From contig CAIQUS010000160.1 in NCBI GenBank assembly GCA_903875045.1, positions 17-64,016 of the forward strand: a stretch of 64,000 nucleotides of DNA. Direction: 5' to 3'. Source of the stretch: an uncultured Bacteroidales bacterium. Its GTDB lineage: Bacteria > Bacteroidota > Bacteroidia > Bacteroidales > FEN-979. Positions within the stretch are counted from its first letter, which is position 1. Every line of letters starts with the position of its first letter. Positions 3,089 to 57,478 of the stretch are shown piece after piece. The position numbers were made by a program, and so were the translations under genes. The notes below the pieces were generated by a model. It was given only the letters and a program-made list of their open reading frames with translations, had not been told where the DNA came from and did no database searches.

Positions 3089-4660
3089 TCACCGGGGGCT
3101 TGTTCTGGGATAATCAAGCGAATAATGCAATCCCCTGCTCTCCTGTCGGCGGTGAGCGGCTTTGATGATAAGGTAGCCGATGTTGATCAGGTTACGCAAT
3201 TCGCAAAGCCGGGGGGTGAGAATTGACTTGCTGTAAAGGTCTTCCGATTCGCGGTAAAGCAGTTCAAGCCGGTCGAATGCACGTTGCAAACGGAGGTTTG
3301 ACCGAACAATGCCAACATAACTGCTCATGATGGACTGAAGTTCTTTCAACGACTGGGTAATCAGTACCATCTCCTCATTGAGTACCATGCCCTCTGCATT
3401 CCAGTCGGGAACTTCATTGCAGAAAGCAATATTTTTAAACTGAGAGATGGCTTCAGCGCTGGCCCTGTGAGAGAATACGAGTGATTCGAGCAGGGAGTTT
3501 GAGGCAAGCCGGTTGGCACCGTGCAAACCTGTTGAAGAGCATTCACCGGAGGCATAGAGGTTCAGGATGGAACTACGCCCGAACTCATCCACTTTTATGC
3601 CTCCACAGGTATAATGTGCAGCGGGAACGACCGGGATCATATCTTTGCTGATGTCAACGCCGATGGAAAGGCATTTGGCATAAATGGTCGGGAAGTGGTT
3701 GATGAGTTCGTTTTTGTTCAGGTGCCTGCAATCGAGGAAAAGGTAGTCTTCGCCGCTTAGCTTCAGCTCATTGTCAATGGCCCGTGCAACGATGTCGCGG
3801 GGGGCCAGCGAAAGTCGGGGGTCGTACTTATGCATAAACTCCTTCCCGTCGCGTGTTTTCAACATGGCACCAAAACCACGCATGGCTTCTGTGATCAGAA
3901 AGGCAGGTTTTTCCTCCGGATGATAAAGTGCTGTCGGGTGAAACTGGATAAATTCCATGTTCTCTACGGCTCCCTTTGCGCGGTAGACCATTGCGATGCC
4001 ATCGCCGGTTGAGATGAGCGGATTGGTGGTGTTGTTATAAACGTTTCCGGCACCTCCTGTGGCGATCAGTGTAACTTTCGATAAAATGGTATCGACCAGC
4101 CGGGTTCTTGGGTTCATTACAAAGGCGCCAAAACAGGTTATTCCTTCGGTTCGGCTGTTCACCTCTACCCCGAGATGGTGCTGTGTGATAATGTCGATGG
4201 TGAAATGATTCTCAAGGATCTCAATGTTAGGGTGTTTCTTCACCTGTTCGAGCAACTTGTTTTCTATTTCCCGTCCGGTACTGTCTTTGTGATGCAATAC
4301 CCGGTATTCTGAATGTCCGCCCTCCTTGGCAAGATCGTAACGTCCGGTGATGGTCTTATCGAATTTGGTGCCCCATTTAATCAGCTCCCTGATCCGTTCA
4401 GTTGATTCATTGATGGTAAACCTTACAACATCTTCATTGCACAATCCATCACCTGCAATGATGGTATCCTGGATATGTTTCTCAAATGAATCCGGAGTAT
4501 ACATTACGGCGGCGATGCCCCCCTGGGCCCAGCTGGTGGCGGTATCGTCCATTTTAGATTTCGTGACGATGCATACTTTTCCATGTTTTGCCACTTTTAT
4601 GGCAAAAGTAAGTCCGGCAATACCTGATCCAATGACCAGGAAATCAACATTTTTTCTCAT
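3089..4660 (-). CDS. nadB: L-aspartate oxidase
   Basis: 523 aa. N-terminal FAD fold DFLVIGSGIAGL, then SWAQGGIAAV, HYTCGGI and GANRLASNSLLE, matching the fumarate reductase/succinate dehydrogenase flavoprotein family at NadB length. Confidence 0.9.
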   Translation of the reverse strand: MRKNVDFLVIGSGIAGLTFAIKVAKHGKVCIVTKSKMDDTATSWAQGGIAAVMYTPDSFEKHIQDTIIAGDGLCNEDVVRFTINESTERIRELIKWGTKFDKTITGRYDLAKEGGHSEYRVLHHKDSTGREIENKLLEQVKKHPNIEILENHFTIDIITQHHLGVEVNSRTEGITCFGAFVMNPRTRLVDTILSKVTLIATGGAGNVYNNTTNPLISTGDGIAMVYRAKGAVENMEFIQFHPTALYHPEEKPAFLITEAMRGFGAMLKTRDGKEFMHKYDPRLSLAPRDIVARAIDNELKLSGEDYLFLDCRHLNKNELINHFPTIYAKCLSIGVDISKDMIPVVPAAHYTCGGIKVDEFGRSSILNLYASGECSSTGLHGANRLASNSLLESLVFSHRASAEAISQFKNIAFCNEVPDWNAEGMVLNEEMVLITQSLKELQSIMSSYVGIVRSNLRLQRAFDRLELLYRESEDLYSKSILTPRLCELRNLINIGYLIIKAAHRRQESRGLHYSLDYPRTSPR

Positions 4661-5980: not shown

Positions 5981-8776
5981 TTAAACAATCTGAAACTCAT
6001 GTTCGGCGCAATGCAGTCTGCACGAGCCGTTTGCATGTTCGCAGGTGCATTTTCCCAGCGCCTTTTCCACGATGAGTTTTTGCTGGATCTTATGGAGGCG
6101 TGAGGAACCTGTTGCCGGGCTGCCACTGGCCGGCCGGGCAGTGTGATGCAGGAATGGCATGGCAAAGTGCTGGTCAAAAACCATATTCTGCGTGATAAAT
6201 TTCCATGCGCCCATGTTCACAGGTTCTTCCTGTACCCATTCCCAGTGTTTGGTGTGGGAATATTTGGCGAAAATCTGTTGAAGTTGCTGCAAGGGAAGTG
6301 GATAAAGCTGTTCAAGCCGGATAATGGCTACATCTTCCTTTTGCTGCTTCTCCCTCTCTTCCAGAATGTCGTAATAAACCTTGCCTGAACAAAGTACCAC
6401 CCGTTGGATCTTTGAAGGGTCAACCGTTGCATCATCAATAACTTCGTGAAATCCGCCGGTGGTAAACTCTTCAACTGATGAAACACAACGTGGATGGCGG
6501 AGCAGGCTTTTGGGGGTAAATACCACAAGCGGTTTACGGAATGGCCAGTAGAGCTGTCGGCGCAATACATGAAAAAAATTGGCCGGGGTGGAACAGTTCA
6601 CGATCTGCATATTGTGATGGCCGCACAAAGAAAGAAATCGTTCAATCCTTGCCGAAGAGTGCTCCGGTCCCTGGCCTTCATAACCATGGGGCAACAGCAA
6701 TACAGCACCATTCATCACTTTCCATTTGTCTTCTGCACTGCTGATATACTGATCGATCACAATCTGGGCCCCATTGTTGAAGTCACCAAACTGCGCTTCC
6801 CAAACTGTTAAAGCGTTGGGGGTGGAATAGGCATAGCCATATTCAAAGCCAAGCACGCCATATTCCGATAACAGTGAATTGTAAATGCTCAGTTTAGCCT
6901 GGCTTGCTGAAATATGTTCCAGCGGGATGAATTTCTCCTCCGAATCTTCTACCGTGAGCACGGCATGGCGGTGGCTGAAAGTGCCGCGCTGCACATCCTG
7001 TCCGCTCAGCCTTACCGGATGGCCTTCTGTGAGGAGGGAACCGTAGGCGATCAGTTCGCCCATGGCCCAGTCAAGTTTGTCAGCTTCGAGCATGGCTTTC
7101 CGGTCATCCTGCATTTTGATGATTTTCCGGAAAAATATTTTCCCTTCTGGCAATGCAGTTAGTTTACGGGCAATTTCACGCAAGGTCGATTCTGAAATGG
7201 CCGTTACGGGGGAAGTTTGAAAATCGGCAGGAGTGGCTTTTCGCAAACCGTCCCATTGTTTTCCAAGGAAGGATGAAATGTCGCCCTTGATGATGGTTTT
7301 CGCTTCATCGAAGCCATAATCAAGTTTGGTGTTGATTTCAGATTTAATTCCTGCAACATCAATGGATGAAAGTGTGGCTTCCTCTTCAAGCTTTTTCAGG
7401 TAGATCTCCAGCGGATCAGGGTGTTGCTCGATTATTTTATAAAGGATTGGCTGGGTAAACCGGGGTTCGTCACTTTCGTTATGCCCGTATTTTCTGTATC
7501 CGAGGAGGTCGATGAAAATATCTTTATGAAATTTAGCCCTGAATTCCATGGCAAGCCTGACAGTGTATACCACTGCCTCGACATCATCGGCATTCACATG
7601 GAAAATGGGTGACTGAATGGTCTTTGCCACATCGGTGCAATACACACTCGACCGGCCATCGAGGTAATTGGTGGTAAACCCGATCTGGTTGTTTACCACC
7701 AGATGAATGGTCCCTCCTGTCTTGTAACCTTCCAGATCGGCCATCTGGATAAGTTCATAGATAATGCCCTGCCCCGAAATGGAGGCATCACCATGGATGA
7801 GGATCGCAGCAACTTTGTCATTGTTCCCGCCATGGGCATGGTCAATTTTGGCCCTGGAAATGCCTTCAACCACCGGATCAACGGTTTCGAGATGTGATGG
7901 ATTGGGAGCCAGGGTGAGATGTACTTTTTTCCCGGTATGTGAAATGATCTCATTTGAGTACCCCAGGTGGTATTTCACATCGCCAAGCAGGTCATCATCC
8001 TCATACTCTTTCCCTTCAAATTCAGAGAAAATTTGTGTGAAAGGTTTGTGCATGATGTTCCCAAGTACGTTCAACCGTCCGCGATGGGCCATGCCAAGCA
8101 CAAACTCATCGATGCCAAGGTCGGCACCTTGTTGGATCACTGCTTCCAGTGCCGGGATCAGCGATTCAACTCCTTCAAGTGAAAAGCTTTTCTGCCCCGG
8201 GAATTTCTTATGGATGAATTTTTCAAAGAGAACACCTTCGGCTAATTTACGGAGGATAATCGTTTTATCGTCGAGTGAAAAGGAAGGGGTGTTTTGCCGG
8301 GGCTCCATTTTCTCCTTAAACCATTCAACAATTTCCGGTCTCCTGATGTAGTGGTACTCAACCCCAACCGACTGACAATAGGTTTTTTGTAAATGGGAAA
8401 CGATTTCCGACAGTTTTGCACTTCCCAGGCCAAGCTCTTTTCCCGCCTGAAATGTTTTCTGCAAATCGTCCTGGGCAAGTCCGAAATTTTCAATATCCAG
8501 CGTGGGTGAATATTTACGGCGGGTTCGCACCGGATTGGTTTTGGTAAACAAGTGCCCCCTTGAACGGTATCCATTGATCAGGTTGATCACCTTAAATTCA
8601 TTGGGGACTACATACGCATTGCCCTGGTCGGTCTTGAAATTTGTCTGGCAAAATTCAAAACCTTCAAAAAACTTTTGCCAGCTCTCATCAACAGAGGCTG
8701 GATCCTGTTTGTATTCTTCGTATAACCCATCTATGACAGAGTGGTCGGGTTGATTCAAATAGTTGAATTTATCCAT
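5981..8776 (-). CDS. sucA: 2-oxoglutarate dehydrogenase E1 component
   Basis: 931 aa, colinear with SucA/OdhA: N-terminal YLNQPDHSVIDGLYEEYKQDP, RGHLFTKTNP, a TPP-binding region GDASISGQG, and HGYEGQGPEHSSARIERFL. Confidence 0.92.
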   Translation of the reverse strand: MDKFNYLNQPDHSVIDGLYEEYKQDPASVDESWQKFFEGFEFCQTNFKTDQGNAYVVPNEFKVINLINGYRSRGHLFTKTNPVRTRRKYSPTLDIENFGLAQDDLQKTFQAGKELGLGSAKLSEIVSHLQKTYCQSVGVEYHYIRRPEIVEWFKEKMEPRQNTPSFSLDDKTIILRKLAEGVLFEKFIHKKFPGQKSFSLEGVESLIPALEAVIQQGADLGIDEFVLGMAHRGRLNVLGNIMHKPFTQIFSEFEGKEYEDDDLLGDVKYHLGYSNEIISHTGKKVHLTLAPNPSHLETVDPVVEGISRAKIDHAHGGNNDKVAAILIHGDASISGQGIIYELIQMADLEGYKTGGTIHLVVNNQIGFTTNYLDGRSSVYCTDVAKTIQSPIFHVNADDVEAVVYTVRLAMEFRAKFHKDIFIDLLGYRKYGHNESDEPRFTQPILYKIIEQHPDPLEIYLKKLEEEATLSSIDVAGIKSEINTKLDYGFDEAKTIIKGDISSFLGKQWDGLRKATPADFQTSPVTAISESTLREIARKLTALPEGKIFFRKIIKMQDDRKAMLEADKLDWAMGELIAYGSLLTEGHPVRLSGQDVQRGTFSHRHAVLTVEDSEEKFIPLEHISASQAKLSIYNSLLSEYGVLGFEYGYAYSTPNALTVWEAQFGDFNNGAQIVIDQYISSAEDKWKVMNGAVLLLPHGYEGQGPEHSSARIERFLSLCGHHNMQIVNCSTPANFFHVLRRQLYWPFRKPLVVFTPKSLLRHPRCVSSVEEFTTGGFHEVIDDATVDPSKIQRVVLCSGKVYYDILEEREKQQKEDVAIIRLEQLYPLPLQQLQQIFAKYSHTKHWEWVQEEPVNMGAWKFITQNMVFDQHFAMPFLHHTARPASGSPATGSSRLHKIQQKLIVEKALGKCTCEHANGSCRLHCAEHEFQIV

Positions 8777-8800
8777 TTCCTGGGATTATCATTTCAGCGT

Positions 8801-8808
8801 CAAATATA
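8801..8808 (-). promoter_or_regulatory. Candidate -7 box TATATTTG for sucA-sucB(-nadB)
   Basis: The plus-strand text caaatata is TATATTTG on the minus strand, 25 nt upstream of the sucA ATG (8776). Confidence 0.35.
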
Positions 8809-8864
8809 CTCATAATTGAATAATTGAGAATGTGATGCAATAGAGAAACCGTTTAAATTATCTG

Positions 8865-8872
8865 TATTTTTG
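8865..8872 (+). promoter_or_regulatory. Candidate -7 box TATTTTTG for the M20 peptidase gene
   Basis: Matches TAnnTTTG 58 nt upstream of the ATG at 8930. Confidence 0.3.
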
Positions 8873-8929
8873 CACCAAAGTTGGATGTTAATTTCATTAC
8901 ATAAATTATTCACTCGAAAAACTATACAC

Positions 8930-10315
8930 ATGGAACACGTTAAACTATACATTGATGAGCACAAAGACAGGTTTTTAGAGGAACTCTTTGGATTGATCCG
9001 GATACCATCCATCAGTTCGTCTGTTGAACATAAGGAGGACATGATCAAGGCAGCTGAATATTGGAAGAAATCGCTTCGTGAGGCCGGTTGTGACAGAAGT
9101 GAACTTTTTTCCACAGATGGGAATCCGATTGTATTTGGTGAGAAAATCATTGACCCATCATTACCAACCGTTTTGGTTTATGGCCATTATGATGTAATGC
9201 CTGTTGATCCGGTTGAATTGTGGGAATCCAAGCCTTTCAAACCGGAAGTGCGCAATGGCAGGATTTATGCCCGCGGTGCCGATGATGATAAAGGGCAGGC
9301 ATTTATGCATGCGAAAGCTTTTGAACTGATGGTTCGCACCAATACCCTGCCATGTAATGTCAAATTCATGATTGAGGGTGAAGAGGAAGTGGGCTCCATG
9401 AACATCGCCCCTTTTTGCCTCAGGCACAAAGAGATGCTGAAATCGGATATCATCCTGGTTTCCGATACCAGTATGATTGCACTGAACACGCCATCCATTA
9501 CGGTTGGTCTCCGCGGACTGGCCTACATGCAGGTAGAGGTAACAGGACCCGGTTTTGATCTTCATTCCGGAATATTTGGTGGTGCCGTGGCAAATCCGAT
9601 CAATGCGCTCACTAAAATGATCGCTTCGCTCACCGATGAAAATGGCCGCATCACCATCCCGGGATTTTATGATGATGTGATTGAAATCTCCCGTCATGAA
9701 CGTGATGAGATGGCCAAAGCCCCGTTTGATGAGGTAAAATACAAGAAAAATCTGAATGTGGAGGAATTGTATGGAGAAGCCGGCTTCACAACCAAGGAGC
9801 GAACCGGCATCCGTCCCACACTCGATGTGAACGGTATTTGGGGTGGCTATACCTCTGAAGGGACAAAAACAGTGCTCCCGGCCAAGGCTTATGCCAAAAT
9901 TTCCATGAGGCTCGTCCCGGATCAGGATTTCGTTAAAATCGGTGAACTTTTTGAAAAACATTTTAGAACCATTGCACCCAACACGGTGAAAGTTAATGTG
10001 CAAACCCTCCATGGCGGACAAGCTTATGTATCGCCAATCGACACAATTGGTTACAAGGCTGCAAGCAAAGCCATCGAAACCGTTCTGGGTAAAAAGCCGA
10101 TTCCCGTGCGTAGCGGCGGTAGCATTCCGATCATCCCTCAATTTGAGGAAATTCTTGGCGTCAAAACTATTTTATTGGGATTTGGCCTTGAATCGGATGC
10201 TTGTCATTCCCCCAATGAGAATTATCCACTTGATAACTTTTACAAAGGAATTGAGACCATCCCTTATTTCTACAAATTTTTTACCGGGATGTGGAAGGAG
10301 AAACAACAATCCTGA
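8930..10315 (+). CDS. M20-family dipeptidase / metallopeptidase (ArgE/DapE/CPG2 family)
   Basis: VLVYGHYDVMPVD, ARGADDDKGQ and MIEGEEEVGS are metal-ligand motifs of peptidase M20. I prefer the start at MEHVKLY (8930) over the ORF-track start at 8870, which lies inside the promoter region. Confidence 0.85.
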   Translation: MEHVKLYIDEHKDRFLEELFGLIRIPSISSSVEHKEDMIKAAEYWKKSLREAGCDRSELFSTDGNPIVFGEKIIDPSLPTVLVYGHYDVMPVDPVELWESKPFKPEVRNGRIYARGADDDKGQAFMHAKAFELMVRTNTLPCNVKFMIEGEEEVGSMNIAPFCLRHKEMLKSDIILVSDTSMIALNTPSITVGLRGLAYMQVEVTGPGFDLHSGIFGGAVANPINALTKMIASLTDENGRITIPGFYDDVIEISRHERDEMAKAPFDEVKYKKNLNVEELYGEAGFTTKERTGIRPTLDVNGIWGGYTSEGTKTVLPAKAYAKISMRLVPDQDFVKIGELFEKHFRTIAPNTVKVNVQTLHGGQAYVSPIDTIGYKAASKAIETVLGKKPIPVRSGGSIPIIPQFEEILGVKTILLGFGLESDACHSPNENYPLDNFYKGIETIPYFYKFFTGMWKEKQQS

Positions 10316-10327
10316 TCATGATCTTGG

Positions 10328-10555
10328 GTGCCATTCTTATATCTAAATGAAAATACACGGGGTTGTAAAATTTTGACCATGAACTTAACCGAACAATACA
10401 TCCAGACCTCTCTGCCAATTAAATCAGAGTTGATAAAAATATTTTCAAAGGAATACCCGAAAGTGATTTTTGATATTGGTGCCTGCGATGGGATTGACTC
10501 CGTTAGATACAGCCGCTTGTTTGAAAGTTCAACGGTTGAATATTCCGAAAAATAA
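10328..10555 (+). pseudogene. N-terminal fragment of an FkbM-family SAM-dependent methyltransferase
   Basis: KVIFDIGACDGIDSVRYSRLF is the motif-I (DIGAxxG) region of Methyltransf_21/FkbM. The frame stops right where the FEP motif is expected, and the remainder of the domain resumes at 14153. Confidence 0.6.
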
Positions 10556-10601
10556 CTGTTTCGTCCCGATTATTGACGCAATTCAGAATGACTTATTTTT
10601 T

Positions 10602-10632
10602 TTGTCGCAAATAGTTACTAAATTTGCGACAA
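10602..10632. promoter_or_regulatory. Perfect 11-bp inverted repeat TTGTCGCAAAT-n9-ATTTGCGACAA overlapping a TAAATTTG -7 box (10619..10626); candidate AbiEi autoregulatory operator/promoter
   Basis: Arms read directly at 10602-10612 and 10622-10632. The -7 box ends 22 nt before the abiEi ATG (10649). Confidence 0.5.
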
Positions 10633-10648
10633 GATAAAAACAAACATA

Positions 10649-11245
10649 ATGTCAAATAGTATTGAATATCAGTTATTAGAAAAGACAAAGCGAAGCCATA
10701 GAGGTACACTTTTCTTCGTGGAAAGTTTTTCCAAAATAGCCAACACTAAAGCCGTAAACAAAGCTTTAGAACGCTTAGTAATATCGGGTGAATTAGAGCG
10801 AGTTGCCACAGGTATTTATGTTCGCCCTGTTATAGATGATTACATTGGAAAAGTATTGCCCAGCATTGAAGAAATTGCCGTTGCCATTGCCAAAAGAGAC
10901 AGAGCTACGATAGTTCCAACCGGCAGCTATGCATTGTATAAATTGGGATTGACAACGCAAGTACCATTGAATATTGTTTTTTATTCCGATACTTCGGCAA
11001 GGAAAATTAAAATCGGGAAACAAACAATTACGTTTAAAAAAGCAAGTTCTAAAAACTTGTCTTTCATTGGCAAAATCAGCACATTGGCAATTCAGGCGTT
11101 ACGGACAATTGGTAAAGACCAAACAACAGCCGAAGAAATATTACAAATAAAGAAGATTTTGAAAAATGAAAACCCAAAACACCTGCAACACGATTTGCAA
11201 TTAGCACCTGTTTGGATTAGAAAATTGATTGCAACCAATGAATAA
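10649..11245 (+). CDS. abiEi: AbiEi-family type IV toxin-antitoxin antitoxin (winged-helix transcriptional regulator)
   Basis: 198 aa. It overlaps the downstream nucleotidyltransferase toxin gene by 17 nt. The N-terminal region (AVNKALERLVISGELERVATGIYVRP) is typical of AbiEi/DUF6088-type antitoxins. Confidence 0.7.
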   Translation: MSNSIEYQLLEKTKRSHRGTLFFVESFSKIANTKAVNKALERLVISGELERVATGIYVRPVIDDYIGKVLPSIEEIAVAIAKRDRATIVPTGSYALYKLGLTTQVPLNIVFYSDTSARKIKIGKQTITFKKASSKNLSFIGKISTLAIQALRTIGKDQTTAEEILQIKKILKNENPKHLQHDLQLAPVWIRKLIATNE

Positions 11246-53078: not shown

Positions 53079-53639
53079 TTAATTAAACGTTGGGTCGGCC
53101 GGGAAGTTAGCCCAAATGGCATAATCCTGACCCATATTTTTAAGATAATTGCTCCAGAGAGTTTCGGGATGGTCGTTAATTATTTCGTTGACGGATGTTT
53201 GCGAAAGAACCCACGATTTTTCTTTTAACTCACGGTCTAACTGATTCGGTGACCACCCTGAGTAGCCGACAAAAAACCGGATTTCCCTTGGCAACATTAC
53301 TTTACTTTTAAGCATTTCCCTGATAGTTTCAAGATTGCCCCCCCAATAAAGTCCCTGCATAATAGGCAAACTTTGATCAATGTCATCGCGGGTATGGATA
53401 AAAAAGATGCTGTTGGTTTTGACCGGGCCACCAAGATAAACGGGAAGGTTATATCCGGAAAAACCTTTGATAATATCTTTCAAACGGGCTTCAATCGGTT
53501 TGTTGACAATGACTCCGAATGTGCCTTCTTCATTATGTTCTGCCAACAAAATTACCGATTGTCTGAAGTAGAAATCGCGCAGCGATGGCTCAGAGATCAG
53601 GATGCTGCCCTGTTTTGGCTTTGTGCGTGGTTTTTCCAT
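53079..53639 (-). CDS. YqgE/AlgH-family protein (UPF0301)
   Basis: 186 aa with GSILISEPSL.D..F.QSVILL.EHNEEG.FG.I.NKP and GGPV....FF.H. Confidence 0.8.
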   Translation of the reverse strand: MEKPRTKPKQGSILISEPSLRDFYFRQSVILLAEHNEEGTFGVIVNKPIEARLKDIIKGFSGYNLPVYLGGPVKTNSIFFIHTRDDIDQSLPIMQGLYWGGNLETIREMLKSKVMLPREIRFFVGYSGWSPNQLDRELKEKSWVLSQTSVNEIINDHPETLWSNYLKNMGQDYAIWANFPADPTFN

Positions 53640-53658: not shown

Positions 53659-53666
53659 TACTTTTG
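53659..53666 (+). promoter_or_regulatory. Candidate -7 box TACTTTTG for the murL-like/murD-like pair
   Basis: TAnnTTTG match 34 nt upstream of the ATG at 53701. Confidence 0.35.
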
Positions 53667-53700: not shown

Positions 53701-55089
53701 ATGGCAAGGTCAAGCAGGCAGTCAATTTTTGTTCAATTACGAGAACAGTTTCCATTTTTTATCTTTGAAAAACAGGAGTATACGCTGACTGCCCGTGGCC
53801 TCGATATCAGGTTCACTTTTAACCTTGCTGATCAGTACCAATTTCACCCGACGCTTTTTATACCAAGGAAATCCTGTTTCCTTGCCGATGAAAAAATTGC
53901 AGATCATCTCGACTGCATCGTCTTCAACCTGGGGATGATCGAACTGATCAGTTATTGGAAGGCGACTTGTTCCCCAAAGATTATCATCCGGCCTTTTATC
54001 CTGAATGCCGAACAGTTGATATGGTGGAAAAAGCTCTATTTCCATGGATTGGGCGAATTTTTTTATCTGAATGGACTTGATGTAACAGCAGACAGTTTTA
54101 TGCAACTGGAGGTTGTCTCAACAAATCAATTGGTTGAGAAAAAAATGTTCCTTGAAAATTCCGTGATTATTCCGGTTGGCGGTGGCAAGGATTCAGCGGT
54201 GACCCTTGAATTGCTCGGATCGCTGCCAGACAGCATTCCCTTGATCATGAATCCAAGGGACGCCAGTCTGGAAACAATTGTTGCAAAGGGTTTTAAATCT
54301 GATCAGTTCATCGAAATCAAACGCACTATTGATCCTGTATTGCTGAAATTGAATGAGCTTGGTTTTTTAAACGGACATACGCCTTTTTCTGCCATGCTCG
54401 CTTTTGTCACGGTGCTTTCTGCCATCGTGACAGGTCGCAGGCATATCGCCCTTTCGAATGAGTCAAGCGCGAATGAGGCTACCATCGGGGGTACCCAAAT
54501 TAATCATCAATATTCAAAGTCGTTTCAATTTGAATCGGATTTTCGTAAATATGTGAACCGATGGATCAGTAAAGATATTAACTATTTTAGTTTTCTCCGC
54601 CCGCTGAATGAGTTGCAGATCGCCTGCCTGTTTTCCGGATTTCCTCGTTATCATGCAGCATTTAAAAGCTGTAATGCAGGAAGTAAAACCGACTCCTGGT
54701 GCGGTGTTTGTGCAAAATGTCTTTTTACGTACATTATTTTATCCCCTTTTCTGAAAGAAGGTCAGCTTAAGATGATTTTTGGAAAAAATCTGCTTGCAGA
54801 AGAATCCTTGAAAAATATTTTCGATCAGCTTACGGGGTTGGCCGATGAAAAACCTTTTGATTGCGTGGGAACCATCCGGGAGGTAAACCTGGCGCTTTGT
54901 AAAACGATCAGGCAGTTGGACTCAAATGAACTTCCTTGTCTGTTAGAATATTATAAGAATTCCCAAGCTTATTCCACCTATAACAGGATTGATTTTTCCT
55001 TCGAATTGGCACATATATCGACTGAACATTACCTCCTACCTGTATTTATGAAAATATTGGATGAAAGGGTTAAACACAACTTATGGTAA
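53701..55089 (+). CDS. PP-loop-like ATP-utilising protein, candidate MurL (UDP-MurNAc-L-Ala-L-Glu epimerase)
   Basis: 462 aa with an internal IIPVGGGKDSAVT (SGGxDS-like PP-loop), NGHTPFS, and the C-terminal Cys pair WCGVCAKC. It overlaps the MurD-like gene by 7 nt. The MurL assignment is an inference from gene pairing. Confidence 0.5.
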   Translation: MARSSRQSIFVQLREQFPFFIFEKQEYTLTARGLDIRFTFNLADQYQFHPTLFIPRKSCFLADEKIADHLDCIVFNLGMIELISYWKATCSPKIIIRPFILNAEQLIWWKKLYFHGLGEFFYLNGLDVTADSFMQLEVVSTNQLVEKKMFLENSVIIPVGGGKDSAVTLELLGSLPDSIPLIMNPRDASLETIVAKGFKSDQFIEIKRTIDPVLLKLNELGFLNGHTPFSAMLAFVTVLSAIVTGRRHIALSNESSANEATIGGTQINHQYSKSFQFESDFRKYVNRWISKDINYFSFLRPLNELQIACLFSGFPRYHAAFKSCNAGSKTDSWCGVCAKCLFTYIILSPFLKEGQLKMIFGKNLLAEESLKNIFDQLTGLADEKPFDCVGTIREVNLALCKTIRQLDSNELPCLLEYYKNSQAYSTYNRIDFSFELAHISTEHYLLPVFMKILDERVKHNLW

Positions 55090-56516
55090 ATCTGATTCGT
55101 GAACGGTTCACAAATAAATCGATTGTAATTCTCGGATTTGGAAGGGAAGGGCAATCGACCTATCTGCTTTTGCGAAAAATTTTCCCGGACAAACAACTTG
55201 CCATTGCCGATATGAGCGATGGTGTTCATGAAAACCCATTGATTCAGCACGATGATTGTTTGCACTTCATCACGGGAGCAGGGTATCTCAACCATCTGGT
55301 TAAGTATGACGTGATTTTTCGGTCCCCGGGAATTCCGATCTGGCAACTGATTGGTCCGGATGATGAATCAGCTTCTTCAGAAACCAAACAAGCTGCCGAT
55401 TTCCACATTCCCAGGAAAAAGATTACCTCGCAAACCGAAATTTTTCTGGAATGCTATTCAAAACAAGTGATTGGCGTCACCGGAACAAAAGGTAAAAGCA
55501 CCACCTCAAGTTTGATTCACCATATTTTTAAAACTGCCGGGAAAGATGTACTTCTGGCCGGAAACATCGGTAATCCTGTATTTCATTTCATTGACCTCAT
55601 TACCACGTCTACTTCGATTGTTTTTGAGCTTTCGTCACATCAGCTTGAATTACTGAAAATCGCTCCGCATATTTCTGTTCTGCTTAATCTTTACGAAGAA
55701 CATCTGGATGCCTACGAAAGTTATGATACCTATCAGCAGGCCAAAATAAATATCACAAAATATCAGCAACCTGGTGATTTCCTTGTTTTTAATTCTGATG
55801 ATCATCTGGTTGATAAGCTTGTGAAACCATTTTTGGGTCTTCGTAAACCCTTTCCATTTTCAGTCCAGGATCAGCCTCAACCTGGTGGATTTATAGATGA
55901 TGGGGCTATTTGTTTTGCAGATGAAAACCGGGTTGTTCCGGTATGGAAAATTCACCAGGACCGTTTCCTCCGCGGGGAGCATAACCTGAAAAATATTCTT
56001 GCCGCTGTGAATGTTTGCATGATTTGTGGCATTGAACCTGAAATGATCGAAGATGGTATCGCCACTTTTAAGGGGTTGGAACACAGGTTGGAGTATGTGG
56101 GCGAATTTGGCAATATTCACTTCTATAATGATTCGATTGCCACAATTCCCGAAGCCTGTATGGAGGCAATAAAGGCCATCCCTAACGTAGATACGCTTAT
56201 TGCCGGAGGCTTTGACCGTGGTATCAATTATGAAGGGTTGGCTGAATTTCTTTGCAGGTCGTCTGTAAGGAATTTCATTCTTCTGGGAGCCGCCGGGAAA
56301 AGGATCATGGAGCATCTGACTTTGATTAATCATGCGGAAAAAAAAATATTTCATATAAACCGTTTCGACGATTTTAAAACCATTGCGCTGCGGGAAACCC
56401 GTGCCGGTTATGCTTGTCTTCTATCACCTGCTGCAGCCAGCTATGATGAATTTAAAAATTTTGAAGAACGGGGAAAGAGGTTTAGGGAACTGGTAAAAAG
56501 CGAAAAAGCGAAATAG
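55083..56516 (+). CDS. murD: MurD-family UDP-N-acetylmuramoyl-L-alanine--glutamate ligase (possible L-Glu-specific MurD2)
   Basis: N-terminal Rossmann VILGFGREGQS, P-loop GVTGTKGKSTT, LNLYEEHLD and a C-terminal Mur ligase domain. It is not flanked by mraY/ftsW. Confidence 0.8.
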   Translation: MVNLIRERFTNKSIVILGFGREGQSTYLLLRKIFPDKQLAIADMSDGVHENPLIQHDDCLHFITGAGYLNHLVKYDVIFRSPGIPIWQLIGPDDESASSETKQAADFHIPRKKITSQTEIFLECYSKQVIGVTGTKGKSTTSSLIHHIFKTAGKDVLLAGNIGNPVFHFIDLITTSTSIVFELSSHQLELLKIAPHISVLLNLYEEHLDAYESYDTYQQAKINITKYQQPGDFLVFNSDDHLVDKLVKPFLGLRKPFPFSVQDQPQPGGFIDDGAICFADENRVVPVWKIHQDRFLRGEHNLKNILAAVNVCMICGIEPEMIEDGIATFKGLEHRLEYVGEFGNIHFYNDSIATIPEACMEAIKAIPNVDTLIAGGFDRGINYEGLAEFLCRSSVRNFILLGAAGKRIMEHLTLINHAEKKIFHINRFDDFKTIALRETRAGYACLLSPAAASYDEFKNFEERGKRFRELVKSEKAK

Positions 56517-56534
56517 CCAAAAAGCGAAAAATGA
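56495..56534. repeat. Five tandem 8-nt units (AAAAAGCG)
   Basis: aaaaagcg aaaaagcg aaatagcc aaaaagcg aaaaatga. The array contains the murD-like stop (TAG 56514-56516) and the next gene's ATG (56531). Confidence 0.85.
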
Positions 56535-57478
56535 AAAAAATATTAAACCTGCTGCTGGTTTTAGTGATGTTTGCGAACCATGTTTTTGCACAGCAGACTG
56601 ATTACAATACCATCGTGAACCGTTATATACTGAAATACAGGGATATTGCAGTCAAGGAAATGAAGGAGTACCGGATTCCGGCAAGCATCACCCTGGCACA
56701 GGGAATTTTGGAATCCAATGCGGGCCGTAGTCCGCTTGCTGTTGAGGCAAATAACCATTTTGGCATAAAATGTCATAAGGGATGGACAGGTAAAACATTT
56801 TACAAGGATGATGAAACAAAGAATGAATGTTTCAGAAAATATGGCAGTCCTGTTGAGTCATTCCGCGATCATTCATGGTTTCTGACCCAGCGCGACCGGT
56901 ATAAGGGTTTGTTCAGTTTGGAAATTACCGATTACAAAGGTTGGGCAAACGGCTTAAAATCGGCAGGTTATGCAACTAATCCTTCTTACGCACAATTGCT
57001 GATCAAGACAATTGAGACTTTCGATCTTTACCGTTTCGACCAGGCTGAATTTATTGTTGCATCGGGCGACAGTTCTGATGTTGCGACGCCGCCGGAAGAA
57101 AAGGCATGGTTAAACAGGTTTGTGGTGAAATCTACGGGACCAGCCAACCGCAATATTTACGAAAACAACAGGTTGCAAATGATTATTGCCAGACAGGACG
57201 ATAATCTGTATGTGATCGCACGTGATTTTAATTTATCCGTAAGTAAGCTGCTTAAATACAATGATTTACCAAAGCCGACTTCGTTGAATCCCGGCCAGAT
57301 TGTGTATCTTGAGGCAAAGAGACGAAAAGGGGCCATTGAAAGTCATAAGCTACAGGCAGGGGAGTCTTTATATGTCATTTCTCAACTTTATGGCATCAGG
57401 TTGAAATCTCTTCTTAAACGCAATGATCTGCACATAGGTAGTGAACCCAAAAAGGGAACTATTTTACGGCTTAGGTAG
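56531..57478 (+). CDS. Glucosaminidase-domain peptidoglycan hydrolase with two LysM domains
   Basis: Signal peptide. IPASITLAQGILESNAGRSPLA..NNHFGIK (mannosyl-glycoprotein endo-beta-N-acetylglucosaminidase domain). Two LysM repeats (YVIARDFNLSVSKLLKYNDL, YVISQLYGIRLKSLLKRNDL). Confidence 0.8.
   Translation: MKKILNLLLVLVMFANHVFAQQTDYNTIVNRYILKYRDIAVKEMKEYRIPASITLAQGILESNAGRSPLAVEANNHFGIKCHKGWTGKTFYKDDETKNECFRKYGSPVESFRDHSWFLTQRDRYKGLFSLEITDYKGWANGLKSAGYATNPSYAQLLIKTIETFDLYRFDQAEFIVASGDSSDVATPPEEKAWLNRFVVKSTGPANRNIYENNRLQMIIARQDDNLYVIARDFNLSVSKLLKYNDLPKPTSLNPGQIVYLEAKRRKGAIESHKLQAGESLYVISQLYGIRLKSLLKRNDLHIGSEPKKGTILRLR

Follow-up and report, generated by a model that had tools for sequence, protein, structure and literature searches.

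A candidate MurD2/MurL route to peptidoglycan D-glutamate in an uncultured Bacteroidales bacterium, with a conserved stand-alone C-terminal domain of MurD

Introduction

A 64,000-nucleotide stretch of DNA from an uncultured lake bacterium of the Bacteroidales (assembly GCA_903875045.1, contig CAIQUS010000160.1), hereafter the window, carries two overlapping genes that very probably provide the MurD2/MurL route to the D-glutamate of peptidoglycan, and with it the sole such route of the host. The pathway itself is known (Feng et al. 2017, as cited in PMC8788868 and PMC5808125). MurL has been reported from some Gamma- and Alphaproteobacteria and from rare actinobacteria (PMC8788868), with low-similarity orthologues in cyanobacteria, one fungus and one amoeba (PMC5808125). 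Our literature searches found no report of the route in Bacteroidota, and its occurrence there is new relative to the literature. What we count as observation comprises homology, a specificity signature, gene linkage and fusions, the absence of murI, of a D-amino-acid aminotransferase (DAAT) and of a second murD, the exclusion between the pair and murI, and selection acting on a fragment of murD.

The upstream gene, murL (53701-55089, forward strand), encodes a 462-amino-acid protein with the motif GGGKDS at residues 160-165. The downstream open reading frame (ORF; 55083-56516, forward strand) encodes a 477-residue MurD2-type ligase with the P-loop GVTGTKGKSTT and a predicted L-Glu signature, Glu206 and Arg379. 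The two overlap by seven nucleotides (55083-55089, forward strand), ATGGTAA, with the murL stop within the murD2 start, an arrangement which suggests that their translation may be coupled. An initial annotation of the window had given the same coordinates, overlap and motifs, and had proposed the L-Glu route of MurD2 and MurL for the pair, a proposal now supported by the MurL homology, the Glu/Arg signature and the absence of murI and of a second murD. Of 80 related loci, 60 have murD2 immediately after murL, and 10 have the two as a single fused ORF.

In the proposed pathway, the ligase would attach L-glutamate rather than D-glutamate to UDP-MurNAc-L-Ala at the expense of ATP. MurL would then adenylate the alpha-carboxylate of the terminal L-Glu, converting ATP to AMP; the activated Glu would be epimerised, the adenylate would be hydrolysed, and the ordinary MurE encoded in the dcw cluster would extend the epimerised product. 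Free D-Glu would never be made, and for that reason glutamate racemase would have been lost. The resident murD of the dcw cluster would likewise have lost its catalytic job and have been cut back to a 182-residue C-terminal domain. The activities of the two enzymes, like the role of that domain, are what we infer from the observations below.

A MurL homologue with a predicted PP-loop core

The kinship with MurL that had been surmised for the 462-residue protein is borne out by the NCBIfam MurL model NF041275, which it matches with E = 4.4e-76 over model positions 10-392 of 447; the matches of its relatives span positions 4-445. JGI annotates several close homologues as UDP-N-acetyl-alpha-D-muramoyl-L-alanyl-L-glutamate epimerase. 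At NCBI close relatives are labelled "hypothetical protein", because NF041275 is tuned to Xanthomonadales and its cut-off of 700 bits is not reached. The window protein resembles the MurL of Xanthomonas in homology over about 380 residues, in a length of about 450-460 residues, in the adjacent MurD-type ligase, and in a host that has neither murI nor a DAAT. It differs in its score against the model and in its host, an uncultured member of the Bacteroidales that lies outside the published distribution.

An exhaustive search recovered 2,669 clusters (50% identity) of the MurL family at E <= 0.001 and 1,214 at E <= 1e-30. Many of the matches are about 900 residues long, and all four of those inspected are MurL-MurD fusions, with both gene orders represented. 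In one further protein (P0124, 1247 residues), MurL and a MurD-type ligase are joined to a third part, an M20-type amidohydrolase/carboxypeptidase domain.

An alignment of 20 diverse MurLs revealed three invariant motifs, P158-x-GGGKDS165, N253-E254-x-S256 and N268-H-Q-Y271-x-K273, together with the invariant cysteines C90, C324, C334, C337, C340 and C388. C324 and C334-x2-C337-x2-C340 make up a cluster of the form C-x9-C-x2-C-x2-C, which we take to resemble the zinc site of QueC.

The initial annotation had also suggested a PP-loop fold, and structure prediction is in keeping with the idea. The AlphaFold2 model of MurL is of high confidence (predicted local distance difference test, pLDDT, 93.1; predicted template-modelling score, pTM, 0.92). 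Its top match in the PDB by Foldseek was 9y02_B, from the QatB-QatC anti-phage complex (probability 1.0, E = 3e-4), a chain which we take to be the QueC-like QatC. Several argininosuccinate synthetases followed at probabilities of 0.5-0.98 across about 170 columns, among them 4nzp at 0.98. The template-modelling (TM) scores, for 9y02_B as for the synthetases, are low (0.2-0.4). A Pfam search of MurL at E <= 0.01 and then at E <= 10 gave nothing useful and no match to a PP-loop family; PF26298 and PF26299, which are precomputed Pfam matches, lie outside the copy of Pfam searched here. A PDB sequence search with MurL returned chance-level matches only. A PADLOC scan of the protein was empty, and so we regard the resemblance to QatC as one of fold only. 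Thus, the core of MurL is likely to be of the PP-loop ATP-pyrophosphatase type, likely and not proven because there is no PP-loop match at the sequence level and the TM-scores are low.

The motif GGGKDS is like the SGGxDS of 9y02_B and argininosuccinate synthetase, with which MurL would also share the nucleotide alpha-hydrolase core indicated by Foldseek and an AMP-yielding chemistry; it differs from these QueC-like enzymes in an additional beta/alpha domain at its N-terminus and a helical domain at its C-terminus. Reviews give no known domains for the MurL of Xanthomonas, whereas the model of the window protein points to a PP-loop-type core, and the protein has a Cys cluster. Such a core would fit the published finding that MurL requires one ATP and releases AMP, as well as the adenylation hypothesis of the authors of that work (PMC8788868, PMC5808125). 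The activity that defines MurL is a one-way conversion of L- to D-Glu in the nucleotide-dipeptide, dependent on ATP and Mg2+. As a speculation, the activated, N-acylated C-terminal residue might be epimerised through an oxazolone-type or enolisable intermediate, with the non-cluster cysteines C90 and C388, or a conserved His or Lys, as the acid/base catalysts.

A ligase bearing the chirality-determining residues of MurD2

The ligase scores 299.8 bits against the murD equivalog model TIGR01087 (cut-off 212), its top sequence match in the PDB is 3LK7 (E = 1e-53), and it holds the equivalents of the E. coli catalytic residues K115, N138, E157, H183 and K198. It shares with E. coli-type MurD the three-domain fold and the catalytic residues.

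The residues that control the choice of glutamate enantiomer have been mapped in Xanthomonas, where E197, R358, P433 and F435 of MurD2 correspond to D182, K348, A414 and L416 of E. coli MurD (PMC8788868). The double mutant E197D/R358K of MurD2 switches fully to D-Glu, and a K319T mutant of E. coli MurD accepts L-Glu (PMC8788868). We checked the E. coli numbering and then aligned E. coli MurD with two sets of proteins, the ligases linked to MurL and the canonical MurDs of the order. At the D182 position the first set is uniformly Glu (81 of 81); those of its members that cover the other sites show Ile at K319 in 79/79, Arg at K348 in 79/79 and Tyr at L416 in 78/78. In the second set, 11 of 11 proteins show Asp, Lys, Lys and Phe or Trp at the same four positions. 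In the window ligase, Glu206 stands at the D182 position, Arg379 at the K348 position, and Ile at the K319 position, the last of which fits the finding that K319T makes the E. coli enzyme permissive for L-Glu. Relative to E. coli-type MurD, the ligase has Glu for D182, Ile for K319, Arg for K348 and Tyr for L416. It resembles the MurD2 of Xanthomonas in the Glu and Arg at the chirality-controlling E197 and R358 positions and in its linkage to murL. It differs in having Ala or Ser, and Tyr, at the Pro433 and Phe435 positions, and in the Ile that its type uniformly carries at the position of E. coli K319.

A tree of the C-terminal region placed the MurL-linked ligases in a clade of their own (support 100/99); the C-terminal domain of the window ligase is about 32% identical to those of the canonical MurDs of the order. 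In its separate clade and its location outside the dcw cluster it departs from canonical MurD. Judged by its residues, the ligase is probably of the MurD2 type and would add L-Glu.

Could the ligase instead be a MurD of the usual D-Glu-specific kind, relocated from the dcw cluster, and the 462-residue protein a new type of free-glutamate racemase, another supplier of D-Glu, or something unrelated? In favour of such a relocation, the ligase exceeds the cut-off of the murD equivalog model, the genome has no other full-length murD, and all the general Mur-ligase catalytic residues are intact. The Glu, Ile and Arg at positions where 11 of 11 canonical MurDs have Asp, Lys and Lys speak against it, as does the separate clade. 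In Xanthomonas, moreover, XOO_1319 has no glutamate racemase activity and XOO_1320 has an extremely low activity with D-Glu (PMC8788868), and the fusions of MurL with the ligase argue for one common substrate chain. We consider this explanation highly unlikely, and retain the MurD2/MurL route as the function of the pair.

Absence of murI and the distribution of the pair

The genome of the window (5.96 Mb, 99.1% complete) yielded no match to murI (TIGR00067), not even a preliminary candidate, and no DAAT above cut-off, the best match scoring 36.6 bits. A search of it with the murD model found no second full-length murD besides the 477-residue ligase. The MurE of its dcw cluster is a normal ligase of the D-Glu/meso-diaminopimelate type (628 bits), and therefore D-Glu is needed. 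Both the lack of murI and the state of the dcw-cluster murD, where a fragment occupies the slot, bear out what the L-Glu proposal had led one to look for.

Among 401 genomes drawn evenly from the phylum, MurL was found in that of the window only; there was none in the 393 sampled outside the order of the window. A second sample comprised 60 relatives (36 members of the genus, and 24 other families of the order), or 61 genomes with that of the window. In it, MurL occurs in 35 of the 36 genus members, the sole exception being a 63% complete genome, and in 9 of the 24 other families. In the same 61 genomes, murI above cut-off was present in none of the 45 MurL-positive genomes as against 14 of the 16 MurL-negative ones, and it was also missing from 50 further named MurL-positive genomes, making 0 of 95. 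Weak matches to the Asp/Glu-racemase family (31-47 bits) occur in some MurL-positive genomes. The initial annotation had seen in the pair, should its reading be correct, an extension of the pathway to this Bacteroidota lineage, which holds for many families of the order and does not hold as a trait of the whole phylum (0/393 outside the order).

A scan of one genome per species found a MurL relative in at least 595 species. The best 80 loci of the scan are all labelled Bacteroidales or Bacteroidota except for one "uncultured bacterium" and two Lachnospiraceae; they include Lentimicrobiaceae, Marinilabiliales, Marinifilum- and Draconibacterium-labelled metagenome-assembled genomes (MAGs), and the rumen and gut lineages Candidatus Onthomorpha, Colimorpha and Limimorpha. 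The two Lachnospiraceae-labelled MAGs (loci L145 and L149 of genomes G506 and G508) carry a MurL 46% identical to that of the window, a MurD2-type ligase as their only murD, no murI, and no MurD fragment. They represent either a transfer to Firmicutes or mislabelled bins.

Several findings weigh against the pathway as we read it. First, the window MurL scores 256 bits, far below the equivalog cut-off of 700 bits, a value that none of the 45 relatives reaches, and by the rule of NCBI it is a homologue and not a certified equivalog. Second, the signature of the ligase was located by way of E. coli numbering together with the residues that a review names for Xanthomonas, and only two of the four Xanthomonas positions match, those of Pro433 and Phe435 being Ala or Ser and Tyr here. 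This mismatch is not decisive, because the mutations P433A and F435L leave the stereospecificity of Xanthomonas MurD2 unaffected (PMC8788868). Third, the exclusion between murI and MurL has, at the genus level, a Fisher's exact p of 3e-6, which is an upper bound on its significance because the lineages are related and independence is overstated. Fourth, one genome, G450 (98% complete), has the MurD C-terminal fragment and no detectable MurL, full-length murD of either the MurD2 or the canonical type, or murI. Its fragment, a diverged C-terminal domain of 190 residues (locus L158, G450:C4:296000-303000, positions 3489-4061, forward strand), stands in the order murE, mraY, fragment, ftsW, murG.

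The last point concerns genomes that keep an intact-looking canonical murD, with the Asp/Lys/Lys residues, and no murI: 24 of the 50 named MurL-positive genomes, and five relatives. In the five of these murDs that were aligned, every catalytic and D-Glu-binding residue is present. Such genomes must either salvage D-Glu or retain the protein for a purpose other than catalysis, and they possibly hold a D-Glu source of an unrecognised kind. A retained canonical murD, if active, would need D-Glu from somewhere, and this, with the weak racemase-family matches, is what favours viewing the pair as a redundant or conditional route, serving in salvage or stress, with the bulk of the D-Glu coming from an unrecognised racemase or from uptake and being attached by another ligase. 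The window genome, however, has no racemase-family candidate and no full-length canonical murD, and its fragment has no P-loop; the absence of murI from all 95 MurL-positive genomes is a prediction of replacement and not of redundancy. A redundant role seems very improbable to us, and replacement of the racemase by the MurD2/MurL route remains the preferred reading.

A stand-alone MurD C-terminal domain in the dcw cluster

The dcw cluster lies on a different contig (C59) from the murL-murD2 pair, in agreement with the earlier placement of the pair outside it. Its order is ftsI, murE, mraY, a 182-residue ORF, ftsW, murG-murC, a 267-residue ORF, ftsA and ftsZ; the 267-residue ORF occupies the ftsQ position and has no annotation. 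The 182-residue ORF (locus L009, positions 10494-11042, reverse strand), here called the stub, sits in the murD slot between mraY and ftsW and starts 5 nucleotides past the mraY stop. It matches positions 270-440 only of the murD model (154.6 bits), and has no MurD domains 1 and 2, the P-loop included. The remaining murD-model matches on C59 are MurE and the MurG-MurC fusion. A split MurD with its N-terminal half encoded elsewhere is unsupported, the other matches to the model all lying in full-length Mur-type ligase ORFs of 458-878 residues.

Three states of murD were seen among the relatives. MurL-negative genomes have a single canonical murD (390-430 bits); some MurL-positive genomes also keep a full canonical murD; the rest, the genus of the window included, have only the C-terminal fragment. 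Of 16 genomes that had initially appeared to have MurD2 only, 12 carry a diverged stand-alone fragment of 179-197 residues, and the other four (the two Lachnospiraceae-labelled MAGs, a 1.6-Mb MAG and a Marinifilum-labelled MAG) have none. Nearly all MurL-positive Bacteroidales retain either the stub or a complete murD, suggesting that the domain has a further role that is not catalytic. Besides that of the window genome, 26 of 26 fragment loci examined have the stub between mraY and ftsW, and a length-restricted search returned 436 stub clusters, nearly all of exactly 182 residues among the matches listed. Stub homologues are labelled D-glutamate ligase by JGI and hypothetical by NCBI.

The stub is under purifying selection. 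Its median ratio of nonsynonymous to synonymous substitution rates (dN/dS) is 0.094, compared with 0.042 for mraY and 0.041 for ftsW, and its 182-codon core is free of insertions and deletions in 20 of 21 species, the other having a single gap codon. Conserved motifs are EHRLE, FINDSKS, NSTW, PxxWIxGG and LLSPACxSFDLF, and there are 33 invariant columns, among them EHRLE, FINDS and LLSP..SFD. By contrast, the residue that stands at the D-Glu-binding Lys348 varies, and the upstream HN ATP-binding motif is degraded in the stubs of the genus. A structural model predicts a confident domain-3 fold for residues 46-182; the N-terminal 45 residues form a helix of low confidence and strong conservation, as would be expected for a segment that requires a partner.

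One might see in the stub a decaying remnant, or a spacer kept open for translational coupling of mraY and ftsW, and in either case no protein function. The missing N-terminal and central domains, the variable Lys348 position and the degraded HN motif could be so explained. Set against this are the low dN/dS beside that of mraY and ftsW, the near-total absence of indels, the number of clusters of constant length, the invariant columns, and an ORF that persists where MraY identity has fallen to 45-56%. We regard an absence of protein function as quite unlikely. On the dN/dS and the lack of indels we reject a pseudogene or a mere spacer.

In the tree, the fragments nest within the canonical murD clade of the order, beside the full-length copies of MurL-positive genomes, and the C-terminal domain is 48% identical to canonical MurD and 29% to MurD2; on both grounds we reject a derivation from MurD2. 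The residue at which the fragment starts is Met in 10 of 10 genuine Bacteroidales canonical MurDs, and the truncation therefore reused an existing in-frame ATG. The same position is Leu in E. coli MurD and Lys or Asn in the two MurL-linked ligases compared. An internal start at this conserved Met might already be used in full-length murDs. A full-length murD on a 1725-bp contig (L045, G410:C284) falls outside the Bacteroidales canonical clade; the genome is 7% contaminated and also has the stub, and this copy is probably contamination.

According to PMC10214165, MurD associates with MurE-MurF at about 0.8 uM and occurs naturally in chimeras with FtsW. The arrangement in the window genome recalls these chimeras in that a MurD domain 3 lies directly upstream of ftsW, and differs in that MurD is reduced to one domain and is unfused. 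By analogy, our preferred guess, held with lower confidence than the pathway, is that the stub supports the Mur/FtsW machinery as a scaffold or as a partner without catalytic activity. More specifically, and tentatively, MurD may have, besides catalysis, a second function seated in its C-terminal domain, the stub acting as an adaptor that links the cytoplasmic Mur ligases or MraY to FtsW. In that reading, after the pair had assumed glutamate addition and murI had disappeared, some lineages would have retained canonical murD whole and others would have trimmed it to domain 3. Of the elements described here, the conserved orphan tail domain of MurD is more novel than the gene pair.

The same dcw cluster contains a murG-murC fusion (L009, positions 6661-9273, reverse strand) of 870 residues, with TIGR01133 over residues 2-366 and TIGR01082 over residues 411-860. 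It is alike in this to the known MurG-MurC chimeras, a type that is concentrated in Actinobacteria (PMC10214165). At least one further member of the genus (G408) has the fusion, in an open frame of 844 residues; other families have a separate murC.

Surroundings of the pair

The initial annotation had placed the pair between yqgE and a LysM glucosaminidase, and the flanks are as described. Upstream, and divergent from murL, lies a gene of the AlgH/YqgE family (DUF179; 53079-53639, reverse strand; Pfam PF02622, E = 2e-45). An AlgH-like gene divergently adjoins murL in 54 of the 70 named loci with room for it and in 14 of 15 relatives, across deep divergence. The 61-nucleotide spacer between the two genes is a possible shared control region. 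Within it, TACTTTTG (53659-53666, forward strand), 35 nucleotides 5' of the murL ATG, matches the pattern TAnnTTTG, which is presumably the Bacteroidota -7 promoter consensus; it is a pattern match only. A scan of the locus for sigma-70 promoters and terminators did no better than on shuffled sequence.

Downstream, a gene for a glucosaminidase with LysM (56531-57478, forward strand) begins 14 nucleotides past the ligase. Significance had been attached to the proximity of a second peptidoglycan enzyme, which proves to be a local coincidence: a LysM glucosaminidase stands beside the pair in just 6 of 62 related loci, and on this ground we reject a functional partnership with the pair; the conserved neighbour is the AlgH-like gene. 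An octamer array, (AAAAAGCG)n (56495-56534, forward strand), holds the TAG stop of murD2 (56514-56516) and the start of the next gene (56531); it codes for the last residues of the ligase, KSEKAK, and runs on to the glucosaminidase ATG. Were a unit gained or lost, both gene ends would change.

Implications

In the literature, the MurD2/MurL route has been considered a property of relatively few genera, and it is promoted as a narrow-spectrum antibiotic target against Xanthomonas, Xylella and Stenotrophomonas (PMC8788868). If the pair functions as we propose, the route would be the sole source of D-Glu for a whole genus and for many other uncultured Bacteroidales families, gut and rumen lineages included. 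Its wide occurrence (at least 595 species; 2,669 clusters of the MurL family) weakens the argument for a narrow-spectrum target. Many proteins that now bear the annotation "D-glutamate ligase" probably attach L-glutamate, and many of those called "hypothetical" are probably MurL. Finally, the orphan tail domain of MurD would offer a natural separation-of-function allele for the structural roles that Mur ligases are suspected to have in the complex of the division machinery.

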